From NCBI GenBank assembly GCA_000004985.1, contig GG738874.1: a stretch of 64,000 nt of DNA. One strand, 5' to 3'. The notes under the pieces were generated by a model, which saw only the letters and a program-made list of their open reading frames with translations, was not told where the DNA came from and ran no database searches. Positions 2,638-17,238 of the stretch are shown one piece after another (within the stretch, counting starts at the first letter, position 1; every line of letters begins with the position of its first letter). Origin of the DNA: Naegleria gruberi (lineage: Eukaryota). The position numbers and the translations under genes were made by a program.

Positions 2638-5600
2638 TTACATTTGGTGGTTGTGAATAAACTCTTCCATGGATCTTTGATTTTCATCTCTTTGTGGAGC
2701 TTTGAGTTTGATAATCTTAACAAACTCTGGATCCTTATCGACAATGGAAACATCTTGTGGAGTAATGATAATGAGCTGTCTTGTTGGATGTTTGGCTTTA
2801 GCTGTTTTCAAAATCAAATCCATGGCAGTCTTTCTGTACATATTATCCATGAACACATCAAATTCGTCTACAGCTCTAAATGGAGTTTCAACAAGTTCCC
2901 AAATTGAAAGTAAAAAGCTCACAGTTGTGAAAGATTTTTCTCCACCAGACAAAGACTTGGCATCTTTAACAGTTACATGACTACCATGAGTAGCCATATG
3001 AATAATAAATTTAAGGTCTCCATCCTCAACTTCTATTTGCCCAGAGTGACCCTTTTGACTCATGTAACGACCAAAGAATTGAGATACAGTAGAAATAGCA
3101 GAGGATCTAATTGCCAGCATGGTTCTAGTTCTGGAATTAACACCCTCTTTGGCCATTTTAAGGGCATCACGGCAAACCTCTAAGTGTAGTTTCTTTTCGT
3201 CATATGTGCGTTTATAGTCAAGATAATCTTTCTTGACATCTGAAGCATTGATATTTCCAAGTCTTTGTTGTTCTCTATCTATCAACTTTTTAATTGCATC
3301 AATTCTATTTCCCAGTACTCTAGGATCTGCATTGGTTTCTATATATGGACAACCATCTGAAGCAGTATCATGACTTCGATCCATCAACTCCTTGCTTAAG
3401 GTCACTTCTCTTTCCTTCTTTTCTAGTTCTTGCCTGTAACTGAAAATCTCATTATCCATTGTACGACTATTACGATTCTCATCTTCAATTTGTTTCAAGA
3501 TGTTAAGTACCTCTCTATCACGGGTTTCTTTTTCTTGTTGTGCCTCCATAACACTTTGTCTGCTTTCTGCTGCTTGTTGGTTGAGTTCATTCAATTCAAT
3601 CTTTAAATCCTCCATTTTCTTCTCTTCCTCTTTAAGTCTTTCTCTATTAGAGGCAATCTTGTCTTGGCAAATTTTAATTTTACCCTCAAGCTCTTCAATA
3701 AACTGTTGATCGTTGTCTTCCTCATTTGCTATTTCATCGATATCCTTCTTTTTCTTGTTTATAACTACTTTCAGTGAATCGATTTTTTTTGAGGAAGTTT
3801 TAATGCTATCAGTCAACTTGGAAAGACTTTCATATAGCCTATCTGCTTCAGAACGGAGTCTTTTCTCTGTCACCTCTACTTCTTTAACCTTTTTTCTGAG
3901 TTCTTCGGCAGCTTTCACTCTTGCTTGAATTTCTTCTTCCACACTCTTAGTCCATAATTTACTTCTTGGAGCATTAGCAACATCTGTCACAGCACTTCCA
4001 CCTTTTCTAAAAACTCTTGTACCTGTAATGGTAATAGCCTCATATTGTGGGTATTGATCTATAAATGATTGTGCTTCTTTAAGATTTTGAATGAGCACAT
4101 TTCTTTCAACTCTAGACTGGTTAATAAGCATATTAATTAATGTTGATCTGAGAACCTCAGTATCATCATACTTCAAAGGAGTGCTCCTAAGTGCATTCAA
4201 ATCTACATCTAATGTATGATAAATAGTGGTATGACCGTGAGGGAGAACCTTACTTAAATCATAAACCGAGTTGGTATATTGCTGAATGATGTGCGTAAAT
4301 TTGACACCAGTTTTCTTCTTGATTCTGTTCAATTCTTCTCCGTCTTTGAAATTATCAACAATAAATCCATTTAAATTTTTGATAAGAAATTGCTCAATTG
4401 CAGCGGCCCAATCTAAATACTCTTCTTTAACGCTTAAAAGCAATCCCAAAGGTCCTATTGGCGGCTTAGAAAAATTCTTGCTCTTGCTTAGTTCAGAAAG
4501 GAAATTTTTCATTTGTGCTCCTCCCACCATTGCAAATTTATCAGTTCTACTTTGCTTGAGTTTACTCTCTTCATCTTGTAATTTTCTAATATCTTCCTCT
4601 ATACTGCCTCTTTCATGTCTTGTCTGATTTTGTTGAGTAGTCAATTTCTCCCTGTTGACCTTAATGCCTGTGGCTTCTTCTTCGTATTGTTTCTTATTTT
4701 CTTCTATTTTGTCGATATCTGATTGAATTTTATCTATTTCCTCCTGTTTGCTCTTGATAGCTGACTCTTTATCAGTCTTATTCTTTGAAAGTGTTTCATT
4801 TTTGTTTCTGTCGAAAAGTTGAATTTCTTGTTCCAGAGCAGTTATTTCTCTATTGATTTTTTGTCTAGTTTGCTGAGAATTTTTTGCTCTAGTTTCAATA
4901 TCCCTTTTCTTGTTAAGCACATTGCTAGCCTCTTGGTTTAGCAGGTAAATTTTTTTGCCAATACTTTCAATCTCTTCATCAATTTGGAACTTCCTAGTTG
5001 TTAACTCTGAAATCCTAGTCCCTGAAGATGAGTTTTTCTTCTCAATTAGTTCATCTAAACTTCTTTTAAGTGCATCTCTCAATTTGACCTCACCTTCATA
5101 CTGAACCCTGTTTTTATGGTAGATAGCCCAACCCCTTTCAGATTGTAAAGCAGTCATATCATTTCTAAGCTCATCTATCCTTGTTGTTTCTTTGTAAAGG
5201 TCTTCTCTTTTTTTTAATTCTTCTGTTGATTCTTGAAAAGCGCTTATTTTATCAGCATACATATCTTCCATAATCTTATTGTTCTTGTTTGCTTGAGCAA
5301 TATTTTCCTCCATATCTTTAATTTGAGTCGCACGCAGGAAAAATTGATATTTCTTGGCCTCAGAAGATCCGGCCAAAAATTCTCTACTGATATCTTGAGT
5401 CATGCAGGTGGTAGGATTTTCTATTTGAATATTGAAAGAGTGTAAAATGATTGCCAATTCCTTGCTAGATTTTGAAATGGTCTTTCCTTGACTATTTTGA
5501 ATTTTGAGAGTAGTGCTACCTGCCTTGGAAATACCCTTTACAATAATAATGGATCTTCCATATAGTTCTTTCTTGTATGCATCTCTTCCTTGATTTCTGA

Positions 5601-6003
5601 GTCTAATCATAATTTCAGCATGTTCTTTTCCTGACATGACTAGATCCTTAATGGAATTACCTCTGTTAGTATTCTTAGCCTTCGATCCAAGCCCAACTTG
5701 GATTGCTGTAAGAACAGCACTTTTACCACTACCGTTCTCACCGTGAATAATAGTTGTTCTGTCATGAAATTCCACTTTAAAGTTAGGGTGACACATAAAG
5801 TTCTTCAATTTAATTTCTTCAATAATACCTGCTTCAAGGTTTTTTCCATCTTCTGCATCAAAAGCAGTTTTATCTTTCCTTTTCTTACTTTTTTGTGTTA
5901 ATTTTGGTGCTTCTTCCTCATCCGATTCCTCTATTTGTGTATTTGGTATTTCCTCCTCTTCATCAGATTCAATTTCTTGTTGTCTTTTTCTCTTGCTTGT
6001 CAT
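2638..6003 (-). CDS. SMC6: Structural maintenance of chromosomes protein 6 (SMC6); single exon, 1121 aa
   Basis: The N-terminal Walker A region 'GIIEEIKLKNFMCHPNFKVEFHDRTTIIHGENGSGKSAVLTAIQVGLG' is typical of SMC6 (NFMCH ... GxNGSGKSA). Long coiled-coil arms rich in E/K/Q/L flank a central hinge. The C-terminal signature 'LSGGEKSFTTVSFLLSIWELVETPFRAVDEFDVFMD' contains the ABC signature and Walker B motif. Confidence 0.85.
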   Translation of the reverse strand: MTSKRKRQQEIESDEEEEIPNTQIEESDEEEAPKLTQKSKKRKDKTAFDAEDGKNLEAGIIEEIKLKNFMCHPNFKVEFHDRTTIIHGENGSGKSAVLTAIQVGLGSKAKNTNRGNSIKDLVMSGKEHAEIMIRLRNQGRDAYKKELYGRSIIIVKGISKAGSTTLKIQNSQGKTISKSSKELAIILHSFNIQIENPTTCMTQDISREFLAGSSEAKKYQFFLRATQIKDMEENIAQANKNNKIMEDMYADKISAFQESTEELKKREDLYKETTRIDELRNDMTALQSERGWAIYHKNRVQYEGEVKLRDALKRSLDELIEKKNSSSGTRISELTTRKFQIDEEIESIGKKIYLLNQEASNVLNKKRDIETRAKNSQQTRQKINREITALEQEIQLFDRNKNETLSKNKTDKESAIKSKQEEIDKIQSDIDKIEENKKQYEEEATGIKVNREKLTTQQNQTRHERGSIEEDIRKLQDEESKLKQSRTDKFAMVGGAQMKNFLSELSKSKNFSKPPIGPLGLLLSVKEEYLDWAAAIEQFLIKNLNGFIVDNFKDGEELNRIKKKTGVKFTHIIQQYTNSVYDLSKVLPHGHTTIYHTLDVDLNALRSTPLKYDDTEVLRSTLINMLINQSRVERNVLIQNLKEAQSFIDQYPQYEAITITGTRVFRKGGSAVTDVANAPRSKLWTKSVEEEIQARVKAAEELRKKVKEVEVTEKRLRSEADRLYESLSKLTDSIKTSSKKIDSLKVVINKKKKDIDEIANEEDNDQQFIEELEGKIKICQDKIASNRERLKEEEKKMEDLKIELNELNQQAAESRQSVMEAQQEKETRDREVLNILKQIEDENRNSRTMDNEIFSYRQELEKKEREVTLSKELMDRSHDTASDGCPYIETNADPRVLGNRIDAIKKLIDREQQRLGNINASDVKKDYLDYKRTYDEKKLHLEVCRDALKMAKEGVNSRTRTMLAIRSSAISTVSQFFGRYMSQKGHSGQIEVEDGDLKFIIHMATHGSHVTVKDAKSLSGGEKSFTTVSFLLSIWELVETPFRAVDEFDVFMDNMYRKTAMDLILKTAKAKHPTRQLIIITPQDVSIVDKDPEFVKIIKLKAPQRDENQRSMEEFIHNHQM

Positions 6004-9583: not shown

Positions 9584-12500
9584 CTACTCTTTCTTGGATG
9601 AAGGAATGAAAACTTCCTTAGCTGGGGCTCTATTATTGTAATTGGACGACATACTGAATCCATAACTTCCTGCTGTACAAATGCAAAGAACATCACCTTC
9701 ACGTGTTTCACTAGATATTGGTCTATCATTACCAAAAACGTCACCACTTTCACAAATTGGTCCCACAATATCGGCAACCATTGTACTTTCAGCTGGATCA
9801 TCACTATCAGGATTGCTGATCTTGGACAAGTTGACAATTTCATGATGGGAATTGTACAAGGTTGGTCTGATGAGTGAGTTCATACCAGTTTCAATACCAA
9901 TAAATAATTTGAAATTCTTATTCTTAATTTGTGTAACACGAGCTAACAAGACACCAGCATTGGCTGTCAAAAATCTTCCAGGTTCCATACAGAGCTTGAC
10001 ATTTGTTGGATTATTATTTAACTTGAATTCGGTCATAGCTTTAGCAACTTCGCCCAAATCCAATTCAGTTTGCTTGTAAGGCACATAAGGAACACCAAGA
10101 CCACCTCCACAGTCAATTAATTTAACATCTTTAGCCAATTTTGGATATTCTGAAATGAGTTGAGTCAATGTAGTAGCAGTCTTCTTCCATGCTTCAGCTT
10201 CATCCAAAATACCACTTCCAACGTGAGCATGCAATCCCATAACTGTAATACTAAATTGTTCACACAATTCAATGGCTTGAGGAATGTCACTAATGTGAAT
10301 ACCAAACTTGGATTGAACACCACTTGTTTTAACCTTAGCATGGTGACCCTTACCTGCACCTGGATCAATTCTCAATAGAACAGACTTACCCCTCAGTAAT
10401 TCTGACCAATTCATGAGTGGATAAAGAGAATCAATGGTTAACATGACTCCCAATGAGATAGCTTCTCTATATTCCTTCTTTGGAGCAAAGTTTGGAGTGA
10501 ACAAGATTCTACTCTTATCAATATTAGGGAAGAGATTACAGACCATTCTCACTTCATCAATGGAGACACATTCCAAACCGAAACCGATACCTTCGAATAT
10601 CTTGAGAATTTCAACATTTGGATTGGACTTGATAGCAAAGAAAATGGTATCAACTGGTCCTCCACACTTAGTTGAAATATTGATGAGCTTTTGAGCATTG
10701 GCATAAAATTGATCAACATCATAAACATAGAGAGGTTGATCTTCAGCTTGCATCAATTCGAGAAGTTGATTTTGCTTGACACGCCACCAAACATGTTTAC
10801 CACTGACATCGTTAATCTTTTGTTTTTGAGTTTCGAAAAGTTCAGTCCAAGATGGTCCAATATATTGGGAATCAATGGCTTGCTTAATAAAGACCCAATC
10901 GTGTAATTCTTTCAATAATTGTTCATTGGAATTGTTTTGATCGAGCAAGAAAGTCAAATTGACATCAGAGGCAGCCAAGGCAACAGAATGAATCTTTTGT
11001 CCAGAGAAATACTTCAAACCAGATGAAAGACGAGGCAAGAATGATCTAATATTCTTACCAATCAATGACAAGGCAGCACATGGTCCAATAATTTCAACTC
11101 TGCAATTCATAGATCTTAAATCATTAACAAGCTTGTTCAAAATATCATTGTCCAACTTGGCTGTAGCATCAAAAGTGATGGTAATATTGGCCTCAGAGGT
11201 TGTAACAAAATCTACAGAAATATTATACTTTTTGAATTTGGAGAAAACATCGGCCAAGAAACCAACTTTTTGCCACATATCCAATGTATCAATAGATACC
11301 ATAAGAATGTCTCTTCTGATACAGATGCACTTGACGTGTGGTGTCTTTTCTTCATAGGTTAAACTTGTGACGTGTTCTTCTGATGACTTTTCTTCATCAT
11401 TTTCACTTTGAATGAGAGTAATATATTCCTTATCAATTTGCCCAGATTGGAAACGTTTCAAAAGCTTGACAGATCTAATTCTAATTTGAATATCGAATTC
11501 TTGTAAGAGCTTGAGACTTCTTGGTTGTAAAATCTTAAAGTTATCAGAGGTGGCAATTTCTAATGCTTCATGATAAGATAATTCCAAAACAAACTTGGCA
11601 TTTGTTGTTTTCATGTCAGAGGATGTGTAAATTCCACCAGTATTTGTCCAAAAGTCCACTGAACCAATATCAAGTTTAGTAGCATAAATTGCCACAGAGA
11701 GGTCAGAATTTGAACCTCCAACTCCAAAGAGAACAACATCACCCTTTCCATCACAACCCATATTTCCTTGAGTGATGAGAATGTCTGCTTCACTGGTTTT
11801 TAATTCTTCAATTAAATCAGTATCAACGAGTGGAGAATCATAATTGGCTCTCAAATATTGGTCTTGCTTTCTTTGCTCGTAAATGGTAAAGTTGACCTTA
11901 TCACTGTGGGTCACTTCTTCAACAGCCGTAGTTAAATACTTCTTGCTATCTAACAAGGCAGCTGAAAATGAATGATTAATTTCTTCAGATTGTAAGAATT
12001 CTAACAAGAAATTGCAAACCATTTCACTATAATATCCAATAATTTTAGCAATAACCTTTGGTGTAGATTCTGATAATAAATTAACTCCAATAAGGGATTG
12101 TTTCATCTTTGCTCTATATTCATTAAAAGTAACAGTTTCAAGAGCTGGATATTGCTTGTACAATTGACAGAGTGGTTCTAAAAATTCAGTCAAATATCTT
12201 TCAACAATACTTTCAGATTGAAGTGATTCAAATGAATCATCATCCTTCTTTTGTGATAATGATTGAATATATTTCAACATTTTAGTACCTTCATCTTCAT
12301 TCAATGTAGAAGGAGCAACAATAATAATCTTTGCATTTTCATCCAATTCATGTAAACGTTTCTTCTCCGATACAATTTGGGACAAGATAAAATTCAAACC
12401 CTTCTTTTTAGTTAATAAACCAGAATCAAACGTGCACAAGTAAAATTTAGAATGATGATGAGTTTTCATCAATGAAAGAGTGTTTGATAAAACGGAACCC

Positions 12501-12661
12501 GAAGCAAAAACAGGAGAAGTTGAATATGATGATAAACTATTTATATGATGTGATGATGATTCAACTCCTTCAAATACTGTATTCTCATCCAACAAACGCT
12601 CCTCTCTTCTGAAGAAACTATCCGAACTATCAGAATTGTTCATCATTTTTTTTAATTTCAA
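9584..12661 (-). CDS. Bifunctional aspartokinase / diaminopimelate decarboxylase (LysC-LysA fusion); intronless, 1025 aa
   Basis: The N-terminal half carries an amino-acid-kinase fold ('DVVLFGVGGSNSDLSVAIYATKLDIGSVDFWTNTGGIYTSSDMKTTNAKFVLELSYHEALEIATSDNFKILQPRS') followed by ACT-like repeats. The C-terminal half is a PLP-dependent DAP decarboxylase ('IFFAIKSNPNVEILKIF', 'HAHVGSG', 'IDCGGGLGVPY', 'ICESGDVFGNDR', 'CTAGSYGFSMSSNYN'). Confidence 0.85.
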   Translation of the reverse strand: MKLKKMMNNSDSSDSFFRREERLLDENTVFEGVESSSHHINSLSSYSTSPVFASGSVLSNTLSLMKTHHHSKFYLCTFDSGLLTKKKGLNFILSQIVSEKKRLHELDENAKIIIVAPSTLNEDEGTKMLKYIQSLSQKKDDDSFESLQSESIVERYLTEFLEPLCQLYKQYPALETVTFNEYRAKMKQSLIGVNLLSESTPKVIAKIIGYYSEMVCNFLLEFLQSEEINHSFSAALLDSKKYLTTAVEEVTHSDKVNFTIYEQRKQDQYLRANYDSPLVDTDLIEELKTSEADILITQGNMGCDGKGDVVLFGVGGSNSDLSVAIYATKLDIGSVDFWTNTGGIYTSSDMKTTNAKFVLELSYHEALEIATSDNFKILQPRSLKLLQEFDIQIRIRSVKLLKRFQSGQIDKEYITLIQSENDEEKSSEEHVTSLTYEEKTPHVKCICIRRDILMVSIDTLDMWQKVGFLADVFSKFKKYNISVDFVTTSEANITITFDATAKLDNDILNKLVNDLRSMNCRVEIIGPCAALSLIGKNIRSFLPRLSSGLKYFSGQKIHSVALAASDVNLTFLLDQNNSNEQLLKELHDWVFIKQAIDSQYIGPSWTELFETQKQKINDVSGKHVWWRVKQNQLLELMQAEDQPLYVYDVDQFYANAQKLINISTKCGGPVDTIFFAIKSNPNVEILKIFEGIGFGLECVSIDEVRMVCNLFPNIDKSRILFTPNFAPKKEYREAISLGVMLTIDSLYPLMNWSELLRGKSVLLRIDPGAGKGHHAKVKTSGVQSKFGIHISDIPQAIELCEQFSITVMGLHAHVGSGILDEAEAWKKTATTLTQLISEYPKLAKDVKLIDCGGGLGVPYVPYKQTELDLGEVAKAMTEFKLNNNPTNVKLCMEPGRFLTANAGVLLARVTQIKNKNFKLFIGIETGMNSLIRPTLYNSHHEIVNLSKISNPDSDDPAESTMVADIVGPICESGDVFGNDRPISSETREGDVLCICTAGSYGFSMSSNYNNRAPAKEVFIPSSKKE

Positions 12662-13062: not shown

Positions 13063-13719
13063 ATGAATACATTTTCCTATCCACATACATCTTCGGTAAC
13101 TCTTCCTATCATTACCTATGGTGAGGTTGAACAATTTGTTAAAGATTGGATTTCAACAGGCTGTTCAGACTATTTACAACATGTACCAAAGAATGAGTTG
13201 ATGGCTCATTGTTATATGGTCGGAGTGGATAAACAACTGATCAAGAGAGCTTTTCTTTCGAGTGGAAAAGATGAATTGATAAAGGCTTTGATTTCAGCAT
13301 GTCCAATTGTTGGTTCGTCTAGTGCAATCACTGAAGATTTACAAACATTCCTGAATCGATCACATGATTTGTATTGTGTTATTCATGCAAGGGGAAGAAT
13401 CAATTCGGTAAGACAAGTTGACAATCAACAGCTATCCTTTGACGATGACAAATCAACAATTCTAATCACTAACCATCAAGAGGGCCAACATAACGAGCTC
13501 CTCACCAATTCTTCTAGCAAGGGTTTGCAACCAATTTCTATTCCAAGTCAAACAATAGTTAAGGATTCATGTAAGGAAGAAACAATTTTGAACTCCAATG
13601 CCTCATCAATGGACGAAATCAACTCGCCAGAACTTTCCTCACGACCAAGAAGAAAAATCAGAACCTCTCCTAAAGACAAATACAGATTGAAAAGGATTGG
13701 CCAAAACTACAGGAAATGA
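13063..13719 (+). CDS. Hypothetical protein (218 aa) with a basic C-terminal tail
   Basis: Long ORF of coding-like composition with no recognisable motif. ORF 13787..13993 downstream may be a separate small gene. Confidence 0.3.
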   Translation: MNTFSYPHTSSVTLPIITYGEVEQFVKDWISTGCSDYLQHVPKNELMAHCYMVGVDKQLIKRAFLSSGKDELIKALISACPIVGSSSAITEDLQTFLNRSHDLYCVIHARGRINSVRQVDNQQLSFDDDKSTILITNHQEGQHNELLTNSSSKGLQPISIPSQTIVKDSCKEETILNSNASSMDEINSPELSSRPRRKIRTSPKDKYRLKRIGQNYRK

Positions 13720-14337
13720 TTTGAAACTGGTCAATCTCTTCAGTAAACTGTAATTTCTCTCAACAATAAAAAACAAGCTCAATACAATGCAGGAAGAAAG
13801 CATCATCACGACGACATCATCTAATGAATCAACTACTCATATTCATGATGAGATTTATGCTCCGAGATTGAAAACAGCAAGAGAAATACAGGAATTTATT
13901 GAGGCGTACAGACAAATAATGATAGCCAGAAAGAGAATGGTCTTGTCGACCCTGCAGCGAAAACTCATTCAAAAAAGATCTAAACCATTGTAAAATTAGT
14001 AACAAAATATAAAACTAGGGAGAATTAAATCTAATTCTTAATAAAAGAAGCAATTTCTTATTCTTATTCGAATGAAAACGAAAGATTATTGTATTGAATA
14101 CTCAATACCCAGATCTTGTAACAAAGGATCATAAAACATCATCTAGTAAAACCAATCCAATTACAACTATATGATTACCATTTCAATATTCACATCAAAC
14201 ATCAATAGTGGAAAAACAAAACAACAAAAAAAAAGTTCACTACATTTGCCACACTTTATAACGGTCATTTCGAATTTTAAAAAACCATCATCACAAATAA
14301 TAATACCTAAACTAAACTATTCTAATTATTATTCGAA

Positions 14338-16275
14338 ATGGGTCAACATCACACCTCCAATAATTCTGATGTAGCAACAATTCAAAATCCAGAAACATCA
14401 ACATCATCACTCGCTTCCAGTAGTCAGAATTTGATAGAACCAACACCACCTCTCACTCCCCGAAGTAGAAAACAAAGAGCAATATCAAATTTAAATTTAT
14501 CAACTGAATCCCTGTCAAGTCAAACGTCAAATTCATCAACACAAAATGTTAAAATATTATTACTAGGACTTAATGGAGCAGGTTTGTTTTTTCTCTTAGT
14601 TTTTAATATTTACTTTTGGATCCAAAATAGGAAAATCAACAATTATTAAAAAGTTGAAGGAATATATAACAGAAAAGAATTCATTACACGATGAAAATCT
14701 TGTAGATCATCTTGCTCTGAACAAAACTTTTAGAGATATTATTCATTTCCATGCATTGAATGGAATTAAACAATTAATTTTGGCATCTGAAAAGCTTGAC
14801 ATTTCCATTCTACCAAGACACTCTGAACAAAAGAATGATATTGAATTTGCCATCAGTTATTTGAGTAATTTACATTTTCGTTATGGAGAACATGTGTTGA
14901 CAAGTGAAGTTGCAAGATTAATGAAATTATTGTGGGAACAACGTGGAGCTAAGGAAATTCATTCGGAATTTATTGAATATAGAAATCAACAAGCACAATT
15001 GTTGCAACAGAAACAATTGAACGAAGCTGTTTCTGAAAATGCAACTGAAAATCATGAAAATCAAGAAAATCATGATGAAAAACAAAACGAAACTAGTACA
15101 AATGAAACTAATGCCAGTGCAACAACTGAAACTGCTAATTTGAATGAAACAGCAACTGAACCTTCAGCAGCTACTGTTGCCGAAACCGAAACAACTGAAA
15201 CCAATAATGAAGTGAACGAAACTGTTGCCGAAACTCCACAAGTCAGAGTTGATACTGAAGAAGAAGATGTAAGAGCAGTTGCCATCAATGACAAACACTT
15301 CAACGCAGGTGAAATCAATTGCTTTACTCTCTATAAGGATTTGTATAATTTGGACTTTTTCATGAGTAATATTGACAGAATTTCAGAGTTTGACTACGTA
15401 CCAACCGATGAAGATGTAAAATATTGTCAAACTCACTTGAAAGAAGAAAAGAAAGGTATTGAAGAAATTGAATTTGACTTTAGTGGTTCTAAATATACAA
15501 TTTATTGTGTGGAAGGTCAGAATAATGATGGAAGAAAGTGGCTCTTCCTCTTCCAAGGTGTGGACATTGTCTTATTCTTGTGTCCAATTGGTGATTTTGA
15601 TGTCATTCCATCATCACTCGATAGAAAGAATATTGTTCGTGAGAGGTAAGTGAAAATGATCTTGTTTTTATTGAACTATTTATTGTAAAATTATACTCAA
15701 CATACAGTTTGGACTTTTTCAGTAAAATGTGTAATAGTAAATGGTTCAGAAATACACCTGCCATCCTACTCCTCTCCAAATGGGATTCATTCCGTGAAAA
15801 GATTACCAATACTCCTCTAACTTTCTGTTTTGAAGATTACGATGGCGATCATCACAGTTATCAACATGCTCTCAAATTTCTCATTTCAAAATTCAATCAT
15901 GTGAGAGATAAGGAAGGAAAAGGACTCATCAATACCAATATTTATCAACAATTTTCCACAATGGACATGACTCACGAAGAGTTGGCCAATAATTTGGGAG
16001 GAACCATTAAGAATATTCGAATTGAACAGAAAGAAATGGAAAGAAAACAAAAGAGAGAATCCACTCATCGATTAGCTGGCGATCCAAACTCACCCAATAT
16101 TAGCTCAGCAGGTAGTCACACCCATTCCAATTCAAGTGGTGAGGCCATTTCACCAAAAAGTCCAGCTAGGTCAAATAGTGTGAATTCTTCGCCCTCTTCT
16201 GTCTCTACATCAGGAACTGAAAATATCAAACACAAATTATTTGCAGGACTTTTACAAAAATTAAAGAAAAAGTAA
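14338..16275 (+). CDS. Divergent heterotrimeric G-protein alpha-subunit-like protein; exons 14338..14581, 14631..15645 and 15708..16275
   Basis: The P-loop is split by a phase-1 intron (donor GT at 14582, acceptor AG at 14630) and reads 'KILLLGLNGAG|KSTIIKKLK'. The switch II region is 'FDFSGSKYTIYCVEGQNNDGRKWLFLFQGVDIVLFLCPIGDFD'. The G4 region is 'SKMCNSKWFRNTPAILLLSKWDSFREKI...TFCFEDY', with Gly2 after the start Met. Intron 2 is a phase-2 GTAAGT at 15646 to the AG at 15707. Confidence 0.7.
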
Positions 16276-16443
16276 AAATTATTTACAATCATGATTTTTG
16301 AGATTTGAGAAATACAATTATCATTAAATTAATCCAAAGAATATTTGTGCATTGACTCCAAATCTCTTTTCAATTTGATTTGCAAATCAGTTTGTATTTC
16401 AAAATTATATCAAAAATAAAATTCTATTCAAAAATTAAAAAAA

Positions 16444-17238
16444 ATGCTTTCATTTCGTGCAAGCCAACTCAGACCACAAACTTTGTGTATTGTTACAGGT
16501 GCTTCTAAAGGCATTGGGAGGGAAATTACAAAACAATTATCGGAATGGGGAGTACATTGTGCAACGATAAGTAGATCGGAAATTGAGGCTAAGGATTTAT
16601 TTCCTAATCAATATCATTTTCCATGTGATGTTTCCAATGCTAAACAAGTCTCGGAGACAATTAAACAAATTTCGCAACAATTTGGTAAAAGTCATGCAAT
16701 GAATATGTTGGTGAATGCTGCTGGAATTTCCAAAGACGGACTATTGTTGAGGTTTTCTCAAGAGGATGTGGAGGAAATTATGAATATTAATTTGATGGGA
16801 ACTATTAATGTTTGTAAGAGCTCTCTCCGATACTTTATGTTGAGTCATTCGAGTGGTGAAATGCCTTCATCAATTGTTAATATTTCTAGTGTGATTGGTG
16901 GAACTCATATGACCAATGTTGGACAATCAGTTTATGCAGCATCTAAGGCAGGAGTTGTTGCCTTCTCTCAGAATTTATCTCGTGAGTTGCTTGGAAGAGA
17001 TGTCAGAGTTAATGTTGTTAGTCCTGGATTCATTGAAACTGAAATGACCAAACACATTTCGGATTCCATTTCAAAAACATCAAGTGAACAAAAGAATGAA
17101 ATGGTTCAAAAGATTGAAAAGGTGAGAATGGGAAAGCCAAAAGATGTTGCCAGTATGGTTCGATTCCTTCTTTCAGAGCAATCAGAATATATTAATGGAC
17201 AAAATCTTGTTGTGGATGGTGGATTATCGTTATTGTAA
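16444..17238 (+). CDS. Short-chain dehydrogenase/reductase, 3-oxoacyl-[ACP] reductase-like (FabG/CBR4-type)
   Basis: 'CIVTGASKGIGREI' is a TGxxxGxG Rossmann motif. 'NAAG' is present, as is the catalytic 'YAASKAGV' (YxxxK). The protein ends '...GQNLVVDGGL'. Single exon. Confidence 0.8.
   Translation: MLSFRASQLRPQTLCIVTGASKGIGREITKQLSEWGVHCATISRSEIEAKDLFPNQYHFPCDVSNAKQVSETIKQISQQFGKSHAMNMLVNAAGISKDGLLLRFSQEDVEEIMNINLMGTINVCKSSLRYFMLSHSSGEMPSSIVNISSVIGGTHMTNVGQSVYAASKAGVVAFSQNLSRELLGRDVRVNVVSPGFIETEMTKHISDSISKTSSEQKNEMVQKIEKVRMGKPKDVASMVRFLLSEQSEYINGQNLVVDGGLSLL

Follow-up and report, generated by a model that had tools for sequence, protein, structure and literature searches.

Catalytically dead G-protein alpha subunits (Gα) are best understood in plants, where the extra-large G proteins (XLGs) have changed the view of G-protein signalling to one that is independent of nucleotide and regulated by phosphorylation and scaffolding. 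In Arabidopsis XLG2, Gly42 and Lys46 of the P-loop, the arginine finger, the DVGG motif and the G5 alanine are lost, GTPγS binding is about 100–1000 times weaker, and RGS1 and Gβγ are bound irrespective of nucleotide (10.1101/795088); its role is that of a decoy or scaffold (10.1101/795088; PMC8584482). Catalytic motifs also deviate in some Gαs of Dictyostelium, Naegleria and plants, and reduced or lost nucleotide-dependent activity has been suggested for them (PMC8584482, citing Anantharaman et al. 2011, Gene 475:63). Naegleria gruberi has about 44 Gαs (PMC8584482), and Bosch, Jeck and Siderovski (2022) reported 13 in N. fowleri, seven of which (Nf Gα1–7, 343–394 residues) were characterised; those tested respond to GppNHp, GTP or AlF4-, and the crystal structure of Nf Gα7 shows conserved nucleotide-contact residues (PMC9283941). 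Here, we describe a gene at positions 14338–16275 of a 64,000 nt stretch of the N. gruberi genome (contig GG738874.1 of assembly GCA_000004985.1; the whole stretch is referred to as the window), which encodes a Gα with a degenerate nucleotide pocket. Degenerate Gαs of Naegleria are, as a phenomenon, already known, and what is new is a well-delimited family within the atypical Gαs, to which this protein belongs. In the literature compared, with Anantharaman et al. 2011 lying outside the comparison, no description was found of this clade, its conservation across genera, its graded loss of the P-loop or its C-terminal motif.

We assign a probability of roughly 60% to the reading that the N. gruberi protein is a non-cycling pseudo-GTPase Gα, XLG-like in character and independently arisen. 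The motifs that bear most directly on this were called by alignment (phmmer, MAFFT) to Gαi1 and to 37–95 canonical Gαs, and are located as follows.

14566–14641, plus strand: P-loop, G77–T85, GLNGAGKST, spanning intron 1 (GAGESGKST in Gαi1).
15419–15460, plus strand: switch I, K345–I358, KYCQTHLKEEKKGI, degenerate and with a 4-residue insert.
15506–15562, plus strand: G3 and switch II, C374–V392, CVEGQNNDGRKWLFLFQGV, with CVEGQ (374–378) in place of DVGGQ.
15775–15786, plus strand: G4 box, S443–D446, SKWD (NKKD in Gαi1), with Asn269 replaced by Ser and Lys270 and Asp272 kept.
15952–15969, plus strand: G5 region, F502–M507, FSTMDM, with a 2-residue insert relative to the canonical TCATDT.

In the P-loop, Gly42, Glu43 and Ser44 of Gαi1 are replaced by Asn79, Gly80 and Ala81, and the GxxxxGK[ST] pattern is kept; GLNGAGKST fits the general Walker A motif and departs from the stricter Gα form, G(A/T/Q/P)G(E/D)SGK(S/T) (PMC8584482). 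Switch I reads QTHLKEEKKGI where Gαi1 reads RTRVKTTGI, with Lys355 and Lys356 at the positions of Thr181 and Thr182, and with Gly183 retained. Thr181 of Gαi1 coordinates Mg2+, and the arginine finger is its Arg178, the equivalent of which depends on the alignment, being Lys352 with MAFFT and His350 with phmmer. At G3, Asp200 has become Cys and Gly202 has become Glu, next to conserved Gly203, Gln204 and Trp211. The position of TCAT in G5, the most variable box across the degenerate family, is occupied by STMD, with Cys325 replaced by Thr and Ala326 by Met. The replaced catalytic and Mg2+ positions are 78–100% conserved in 37 canonical Gαs, and the protein departs from the GTPase consensus at G2 (Arg finger and Thr181), at G3, at G4 ((N/T)KxD) and at G5 ((T/G)(C/S)A).

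With Glu in place of Gly202 and Asn in place of Gly42, the γ-phosphate site would hold side chains that are bulky or charged. The heavier lesions lie in the Mg2+, γ-phosphate and catalytic apparatus, not in guanine recognition. The initial annotation, made from the nucleotide sequence, had read the P-loop as GLNGAGKST with a retained switch II GQ, and had reported CVEGQ for DVGGQ and SKWD for NKxD, all of which recur in the alignments (residues 77–85, 374–378 and 443–446); its FSTM for the lost TCAT was one residue out of register, the aligned STMD being equally degenerate. Its reading of degenerate G3, G4 and G5 boxes is supported, but the emphasis on guanine specificity was misplaced, since Asp272 and Lys270 of the NKxD box survive and the Mg2+ and catalytic apparatus is gone. 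It is more likely that hydrolysis and the Mg-dependent switch are lost, and that nucleotide is bound weakly or not at all, than that the base preference has changed. The changes in switch I and at P-loop Gly42 and Glu43, the replaced N-terminal helix and a conserved C-terminal motif had not been recognised.

Despite these lesions, the protein is a true Gα homologue in which the Ras-like and helical domain folds are predicted to be kept. The Pfam Gα family (PF00503), against which the initial annotation had proposed an alignment, matches with 219.9 bits (cut-off 48.8; E = 6.6e-65), and Pfam matches are limited to Gα, Arf and the SRP54 P-loop domain. The closest solved structures found by phmmer in PDB are Gαi1 and Gαi3 (E ~1e-37), at about 30% sequence identity to Gαi. 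An AlphaFold2 model built from a 102-sequence alignment has 293 residues with a predicted local distance difference test score (pLDDT) of at least 90, and predicted disorder at residues 1–39, 50–64, 239–307 and 554–591. When the model was compared with PDB using Foldseek, the top matches were all Gαi or Gαo (probability 1.00, E ~1e-17), with a target-normalised template modelling score of about 0.5–0.57, a value depressed by the roughly 160 disordered residues.

Relatives were collected with a query from which the low-complexity parts had been removed (the full-length query gave just five matches) and by an exhaustive profile search of 1.84 billion representative proteins. Orthologues are present in N. 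lovaniensis (XP_044554585.1, 615 aa), N. fowleri (XP_044559855.1, 615 aa, annotated as hypothetical or G domain-containing) and Willaertia magna (KAL9642712.1, 479 aa), and there are three Naegleria-like environmental fragments (P0010, P0137 and P0139). More distant members are P0012 (completed with an upstream exon before alignment), P0128 (677 aa), P0129 (479 aa), P0003, P0130, P0132/P0277 and P0136; these come from JGI, Logan and ENA records, and the members with named organisms belong to Naegleria and Willaertia, both heteroloboseans. Among the distant members there are full-length, intron-free open reading frames (ORFs) on transcript-sized contigs of about 1.5–2.3 kb. In the profile search, clear members (P0002, P0011, P0012, P0128–P0130 and P0132) score 235–779 bits, against at most 178 bits for canonical Gαs, save for the multi-domain or duplicated proteins P0131, P0133 and P0134 (194–245 bits), while the short family fragments P0136, P0137 and P0139 overlap the canonical range. 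The family is separated in a neighbour-joining tree with a bootstrap of 100/100, a value to be read with the usual caveat about long branches.

The degenerate motifs are identical in the three Naegleria species and Willaertia, and so is the whole 19-residue segment of switch II; that of fragment P0010 differs at the final residue only (V to I). An alignment of 14 members defines a set of shared derived characters, all present in the N. gruberi protein: an MG start, the 4-residue insert in switch I with loss of the Thr (E[ED]xxG[IV]E), a G3 box of the form [CNY]V[EK]G[QK], a G4 box of the form [ST][KN][FWYH][DE], the sequence NN[IL]GG in α5, and a C-terminal extension ending in [FL]F[SA][GAK]L...K. 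The G4 variants are SKWD, TKWD, TKWE, TNFD, TKFE, TKHD and SKYE, and the Asp is changed to Glu in P0128, in P0003 and also in P0137, a close relative of the N. gruberi protein. Distant members lack the P-loop Lys/Ser, and reached this state by at least two routes (GLQDSDRAMT and GLQDSDRMLT; GLPSSGGTII, GLPGSGVMNL and GLPGSGRGSI). They still carry the family signature of switches I and II and the C-terminal motif, which suggests that the conserved function of the family does not depend on nucleotide. By these characters, it is a distinct family of maintained Gα paralogues, the named members of which are all heteroloboseans. One distant member, P0128, has a low-complexity insert of about 215 residues (residues ~70–285) after α1 and before the helical domain, a loop other than that used in N. 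gruberi, so large disordered inserts appear to arise repeatedly in the family.

Selection has acted unevenly along the protein. Between N. gruberi and N. fowleri, the ratio of non-synonymous to synonymous substitution rates (dN/dS) is 0.17 for residues 68–204 and 0.10 for residues 296–522, values that are rough because dS is about 1.5 and near saturation. An ENA contig (ERZ929261; L004) that corresponds to window positions 14953–17067 shares 99.0% identity with the N. gruberi reference, and differs at 7 of 1261 exon positions, 3 of 62 in intron 2 and 5 of 168 in intergenic DNA, so introns and intergenic DNA diverge 5–9 times faster than exons. Five of the seven exon changes are synonymous, including all of those in the core, and the two that are not, E268K in the insert and S588T in the tail, fall in low-complexity sequence. 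The neighbouring SDR gene on the same contig has four synonymous and two non-synonymous changes. Over 29 columns that contact nucleotide or Mg2+ (a list that follows what is known of Gαi1 structures), conservation is 0.88 in canonical Gαs and 0.59 in the family, and over the other columns it is 0.51 and 0.67, respectively. The family matches the canonical consensus at 31% of contact columns, compared with 69% of equally conserved (≥0.9) non-contact columns. Constraint, as measured on these alignments, is relaxed specifically at the nucleotide pocket, with switch II and the fold remaining conserved.

The gene consists of three exons, arranged as follows.

14338–14581, plus strand: exon 1, from Met1 to the first base of the Gly82 codon, with the MGQHHT start, a 67-residue Ser/Thr-rich N-terminus, strand β1 and the first half of the P-loop.
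14582–14630, plus strand: intron 1, 49 nt, phase 1, within the codon for the second P-loop glycine (GxxxxG/K).
14631–15645, plus strand: exon 2, with the rest of the P-loop (GKST), the helical domain and its low-complexity insert, switch I and G3/switch II.
15646–15707, plus strand: intron 2, 62 nt, GT..AG, phase 2, after ..RE/S...
15708–16275 (including the stop codon), plus strand: exon 3, with α3, G4, G5, α5, the Ser-rich tail and the C-terminal motif.

Both introns have GT..AG borders, and neither holds an alternative exon. The spliced product is an open frame of 608 aa, identical to N. gruberi XP_002676030.1 (EFC43286.1, D2VIK5), and since the translation matches exactly, the three-exon structure given in the initial annotation is the annotated one. 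It is independently supported by N. fowleri, where the gene on a metagenome contig (L002) has both introns at identical positions and phases (intron 1 being 243 nt); the protein reconstructed from this contig is the RefSeq protein XP_044559855.1 (P0280). Intron-blind gene calls on metagenome contigs (P0010 and P0011) break exactly at the introns. All of the degenerate motifs lie within long exons, with well-aligned sequence on either side. The window is AT-rich eukaryotic DNA of about 34% G+C; ORFs on the minus strand over the locus are at most 82 aa long and fall mostly in low-complexity DNA, and no second Gα-like coding segment occurs in the window.

Three further parts of the protein differ from a canonical Gα in their extent, and are given here with their positions.

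14999–15271, plus strand: insert in the helical domain, residues 205–295, of low complexity and rich in E, T, N and A.
16075–16221, plus strand: Ser-rich tail, residues 543–591, 35% Ser, disordered, following α5.
16222–16272, plus strand: conserved hydrophobic-basic motif at the C-terminus, residues 592–608, NIKHKLFAGLLQKLKKK.

The insert lies between the equivalents of Gαi1 residues ~143 and ~148, within the helical domain as first described, and makes this region roughly 110–120 residues longer than in Gαi1. The block from 205 to 311 is 20% E, 16% T, 15% N and 12% A, pLDDT falls below 50 over residues 239–307, and the T/E-rich string singled out in the initial annotation corresponds to about residues 241–286. 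Its description there as an acidic repeat does not hold. Tandem Repeats Finder detected only a single 9-nt array of 3.3 copies (15046–15075), so that a tandem repeat was rejected in favour of compositional low complexity, and the insert varies in length and sequence: Willaertia has almost none of it, and the versions in N. lovaniensis and N. fowleri are Q-rich. When N. gruberi is compared with N. fowleri, dN/dS is about 1.0 for the insert and 0.41 for residues 523–590, in the tail region. From their sequence and from the model, insert and tail are best described as fast-evolving disordered linkers.

In the AlphaFold2 model, the α5 helix is prolonged to residue 542 and followed by 66 more residues, and the C-terminus extends about 77 residues beyond the end of Gαi1. 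The model supports a C-terminal extension that buries the usual receptor-contact end of α5. The initial annotation had described this extension as about 80 Ser/Pro-rich residues; it is indeed Ser-rich over residues 543–591, but it closes with a conserved hydrophobic and basic segment. The last 14 residues form the conserved motif, of the form LFxGLLxKLKKK, for which a helix is predicted at 592–607 (pLDDT 66–81). Related motifs are found in N. lovaniensis, N. fowleri, Willaertia, P0139, P0128, P0012 and P0129, and variants within the family include ..KLFAGLLQKLKKK, KLFSGLLNKLKKK, KLFSGLIKKLKK, FFSGLTNILKRGTK and FFSKLSNIAKK. At the other end of the protein, the Gβγ-binding helix is replaced by 67 residues that are 25% Ser, 12% Thr and free of Cys; distant family members retain a segment resembling the N-terminal helix. 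All full-length members begin with MG and have Ser/Thr at position 6, which we take to be an N-myristoylation-type consensus.

The comparison with the plant XLGs made in the initial annotation is borne out, as in both cases a Gα fold carries replacements of the Arg finger, DVGG and the G5 Ala, and in both there are large extensions. The details differ. XLGs are plant-specific, with an N-terminal Cys-rich domain that includes nuclear localization and nuclear export signals (PMC8584482), whereas the Naegleria N-terminus is Cys-free, Ser/Thr-rich and starts with MG; XLG2 lacks the P-loop Lys46, whereas the N. gruberi protein keeps GKS; and the substitutions are not the same, with CVEG at G3 in Naegleria and R/N/P in XLG2, and Met and Gln, respectively, at G5. 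The named members being heteroloboseans, the degeneration arose independently of the XLGs. The resemblance is one of function and not of descent, and the features that mark an XLG are lacking.

Compared with Gi/o (human GNAI1; PDB 1GIA and 1GP2), the protein shares the two-domain architecture, the N-terminal MG, Gly183, Gly203-Gln204, Trp211 and an α3 motif, ESLxLF..ICN..WF. It differs in the replacement of Arg178, Thr181, Asp200, Gly202, Asn269, Cys325 and Ala326, and in having inserts in switch I and the helical domain, an extension of about 77 residues and no confident N-terminal helix. The RefSeq name of XP_002676030.1, "guanine nucleotide-binding protein G(i) subunit alpha", is misleading: the Cys at position -4 that is a Gi/o signature (CGLF/CGLY) is absent, the protein ending in ...LLQKLKKK, and orthology with Gi/o was rejected on this ground together with the ~30% identity and the clade of its own at 100/100 bootstrap. 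Labels are inconsistent among the orthologues, those of N. fowleri, N. lovaniensis and Willaertia being called hypothetical protein or G domain-containing protein, and neither kind of label captures the degenerate catalytic site. With the characterised Nf Gα1–7, the protein shares the genus and a large lineage-specific expansion, and in Nf Gα6, too, a low-complexity insert precedes switch I (PMC9283941). As a candidate orthologue, Nf Gα6 was rejected, as it is 383 aa long and ends in ...SLSSK (primer, Table S1, PMC9283941).

If the N. gruberi protein is a non-cycling pseudo-GTPase, its dismantled pocket would allow neither normal Mg2+ coordination nor GTP hydrolysis, and nucleotide would be held at best weakly or statically, through the P-loop Lys/Ser and the Asp of NKxD. 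Receptors would not drive it, since the C-terminus of α5 is not free. The conserved surfaces, namely switch II (VEGQNNDGRKWLFLFQGV), switch I (EEKKGIEEIEF) and α3 (ESLxFFSKMCNSKWF), would then act as a constitutive protein-binding module, and the protein as a decoy or scaffold for Gβγ, RGS-domain proteins or effectors. It may be tethered to the membrane by N-myristoylation (MGxxx[ST]) together with the C-terminal hydrophobic-polybasic motif, and the disordered segments rich in Ser/Thr, at the N-terminus, in the insert and in the tail, could serve as spacers or phosphoregulatory regions.

Several points weigh against this interpretation. What is said of activity rests on sequence, and we only infer the absence of GTPase activity, the weak or absent nucleotide binding, the membrane anchoring and the identity of a partner, which is hypothetical; the data are also compatible with a protein that stays bound to GTP or GDP, or that cycles slowly and in an unconventional way. 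All Naegleria and Willaertia members keep GxxxxGK[ST], Gly203, Gln204, Lys270 and Asp272, which points to some selection on phosphate and guanine contacts in this sub-branch. The dN/dS values are rough, with dS near saturation, the list of contact residues follows Gαi1 structures and not one of this protein, and we found no direct evidence that the N. gruberi gene is expressed. The N-terminal helix is only weakly predicted, at residues 41–52 with pLDDT of about 45–55, and this poor prediction of the Gβγ-binding helix weakens the version in which Gβγ is the decoy's target. Nor did the C-terminal motif prove amphipathic, as its Eisenberg moment of 0.27 equals the mean of shuffled sequences, 47% of which reach or exceed it; an amphipathic helix was thus rejected, and the motif is termed merely hydrophobic-basic.

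The same retained residues, together with Trp211, speak for a working nucleotide switch of the kind that the initial annotation proposed, which would bind GTP, or another nucleotide or cofactor, with altered affinity or specificity, and be either constitutively GTP-bound, its hydrolysis being slow or absent, or follow an unconventional cycle. The Willaertia protein has an Arg at the MAFFT-aligned arginine-finger position, and the kinetics of N. fowleri Gαs are diverse and tuned by P-loop variation (PMC9283941), both in keeping with such a switch. We nevertheless hold this main rival to be the less likely reading, as the Mg2+ ligand Thr181 and the equivalent of Asp200 are lost in all members, Gly202 and Gly42 are replaced at the γ-phosphate site by Glu and Asn, Ala326 is replaced as well (A326S alone weakens nucleotide binding by Gαi1; cited in 10.1101/795088), and distant members without the P-loop Lys keep the family surfaces. 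An ordinary Gi-class Gα, with odd motifs produced by a wrong exon model, would explain the RefSeq name and the top structural matches to Gαi1 and Gαi3. This is highly improbable, given that the motifs sit inside long exons separated by short introns, with no other Gα segment in the 64-kb window to supply canonical ones, that three further species share these motifs, with identical intron positions in N. fowleri, and that the identity of ~30%, the missing CGLF and the separate family at 100/100 bootstrap set the protein apart from Gi. The many lost catalytic residues, the large low-complexity regions and the insert dN/dS of ~1 could also be those of a decaying pseudogene or an unconstrained lineage-specific relic, which we find similarly hard to credit in view of the intact 608-codon frame with canonical splice sites, the core dN/dS of 0.10–0.17, the 100% identity of switch II over two genera, the solely synonymous core polymorphism in the close strain next to introns and intergenic DNA that change 5–9 times faster, and the intron-free ORFs of distant members on transcript-sized contigs. 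The low core dN/dS and the identical switch II across genera lead us to reject both pseudogene and mis-annotation.

The pseudo-GTPase interpretation can be extended to the family as a whole, as an ancient set of nucleotide-independent decoy Gαs in heteroloboseans and perhaps in relatives seen only as environmental sequences, which evolved independently of the XLGs, lost the pocket stepwise (Mg2+ and catalytic residues in every member, the P-loop Lys/Ser in several lineages), conserved the switch II surface, N-myristoylation and the C-terminal hydrophobic-basic motif for membrane or partner, and constitutively sequester or scaffold Gβγ, 7TM-RGS (seven-transmembrane RGS) or cyclase partners. We put this forward tentatively and with some doubt. 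If true, decoy Gαs would be a solution reached convergently and repeatedly where canonical Gαs self-activate, and the organisms here carry many 7TM-RGS proteins and self-activating Gαs, with about 44 Gαs in N. gruberi and 13 in N. fowleri. A second, independent and conserved degenerate family would test the generality of the decoy Gα logic, and the natural series of stepwise pocket loss would be useful for learning which Gα functions survive without nucleotide. The N. fowleri orthologue, XP_044559855.1, would not be expected to behave as a drug-target GTPase.

The neighbours of the gene in the window are an aspartokinase/diaminopimelate (DAP) decarboxylase fusion, an SDR and a GDPD gene, and this genomic context is uninformative. 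The flanking SDR gene (16444–17238) is identical to N. gruberi XP_002676031.1. The ORF at 9584–12661 on the minus strand is 1025 aa long; its amino-acid kinase, ACT and pyridoxal phosphate-dependent ornithine/DAP/arginine decarboxylase domains suggest an aspartokinase-diaminopimelate decarboxylase fusion that belongs to the lysine pathway. Just upstream of the Gα gene, at 13063–13993 on the plus strand, there are ORFs of 218 and 68 aa, the first of which has no Pfam match; the two may belong, as exons, to a single uncharacterised gene. In the environmental contig that carries the distant member P0012 (L001; JGI 3300062347, Ga0606064_0034), positions 3298–5799 encode a protein of 833 aa that combines NIT, guanylate/adenylate cyclase and RGS domains; it lies some 1.5 kb downstream of P0012, from which a Methyltransf_7 gene separates it. 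It is possibly a functional neighbour of the degenerate Gα, bearing in mind that gene order carries little meaning in eukaryotes. Lastly, P0131, one of the multi-domain proteins retrieved by the profile search, is 2766 aa long, with 17 matched stretches in that search, and consists of about 13 tandem Gα-like Ras-domain units, seemingly without a helical domain, many of which have imperfect P-loops (such as LGSKDSGKATF and LGPEHKAKTLF).

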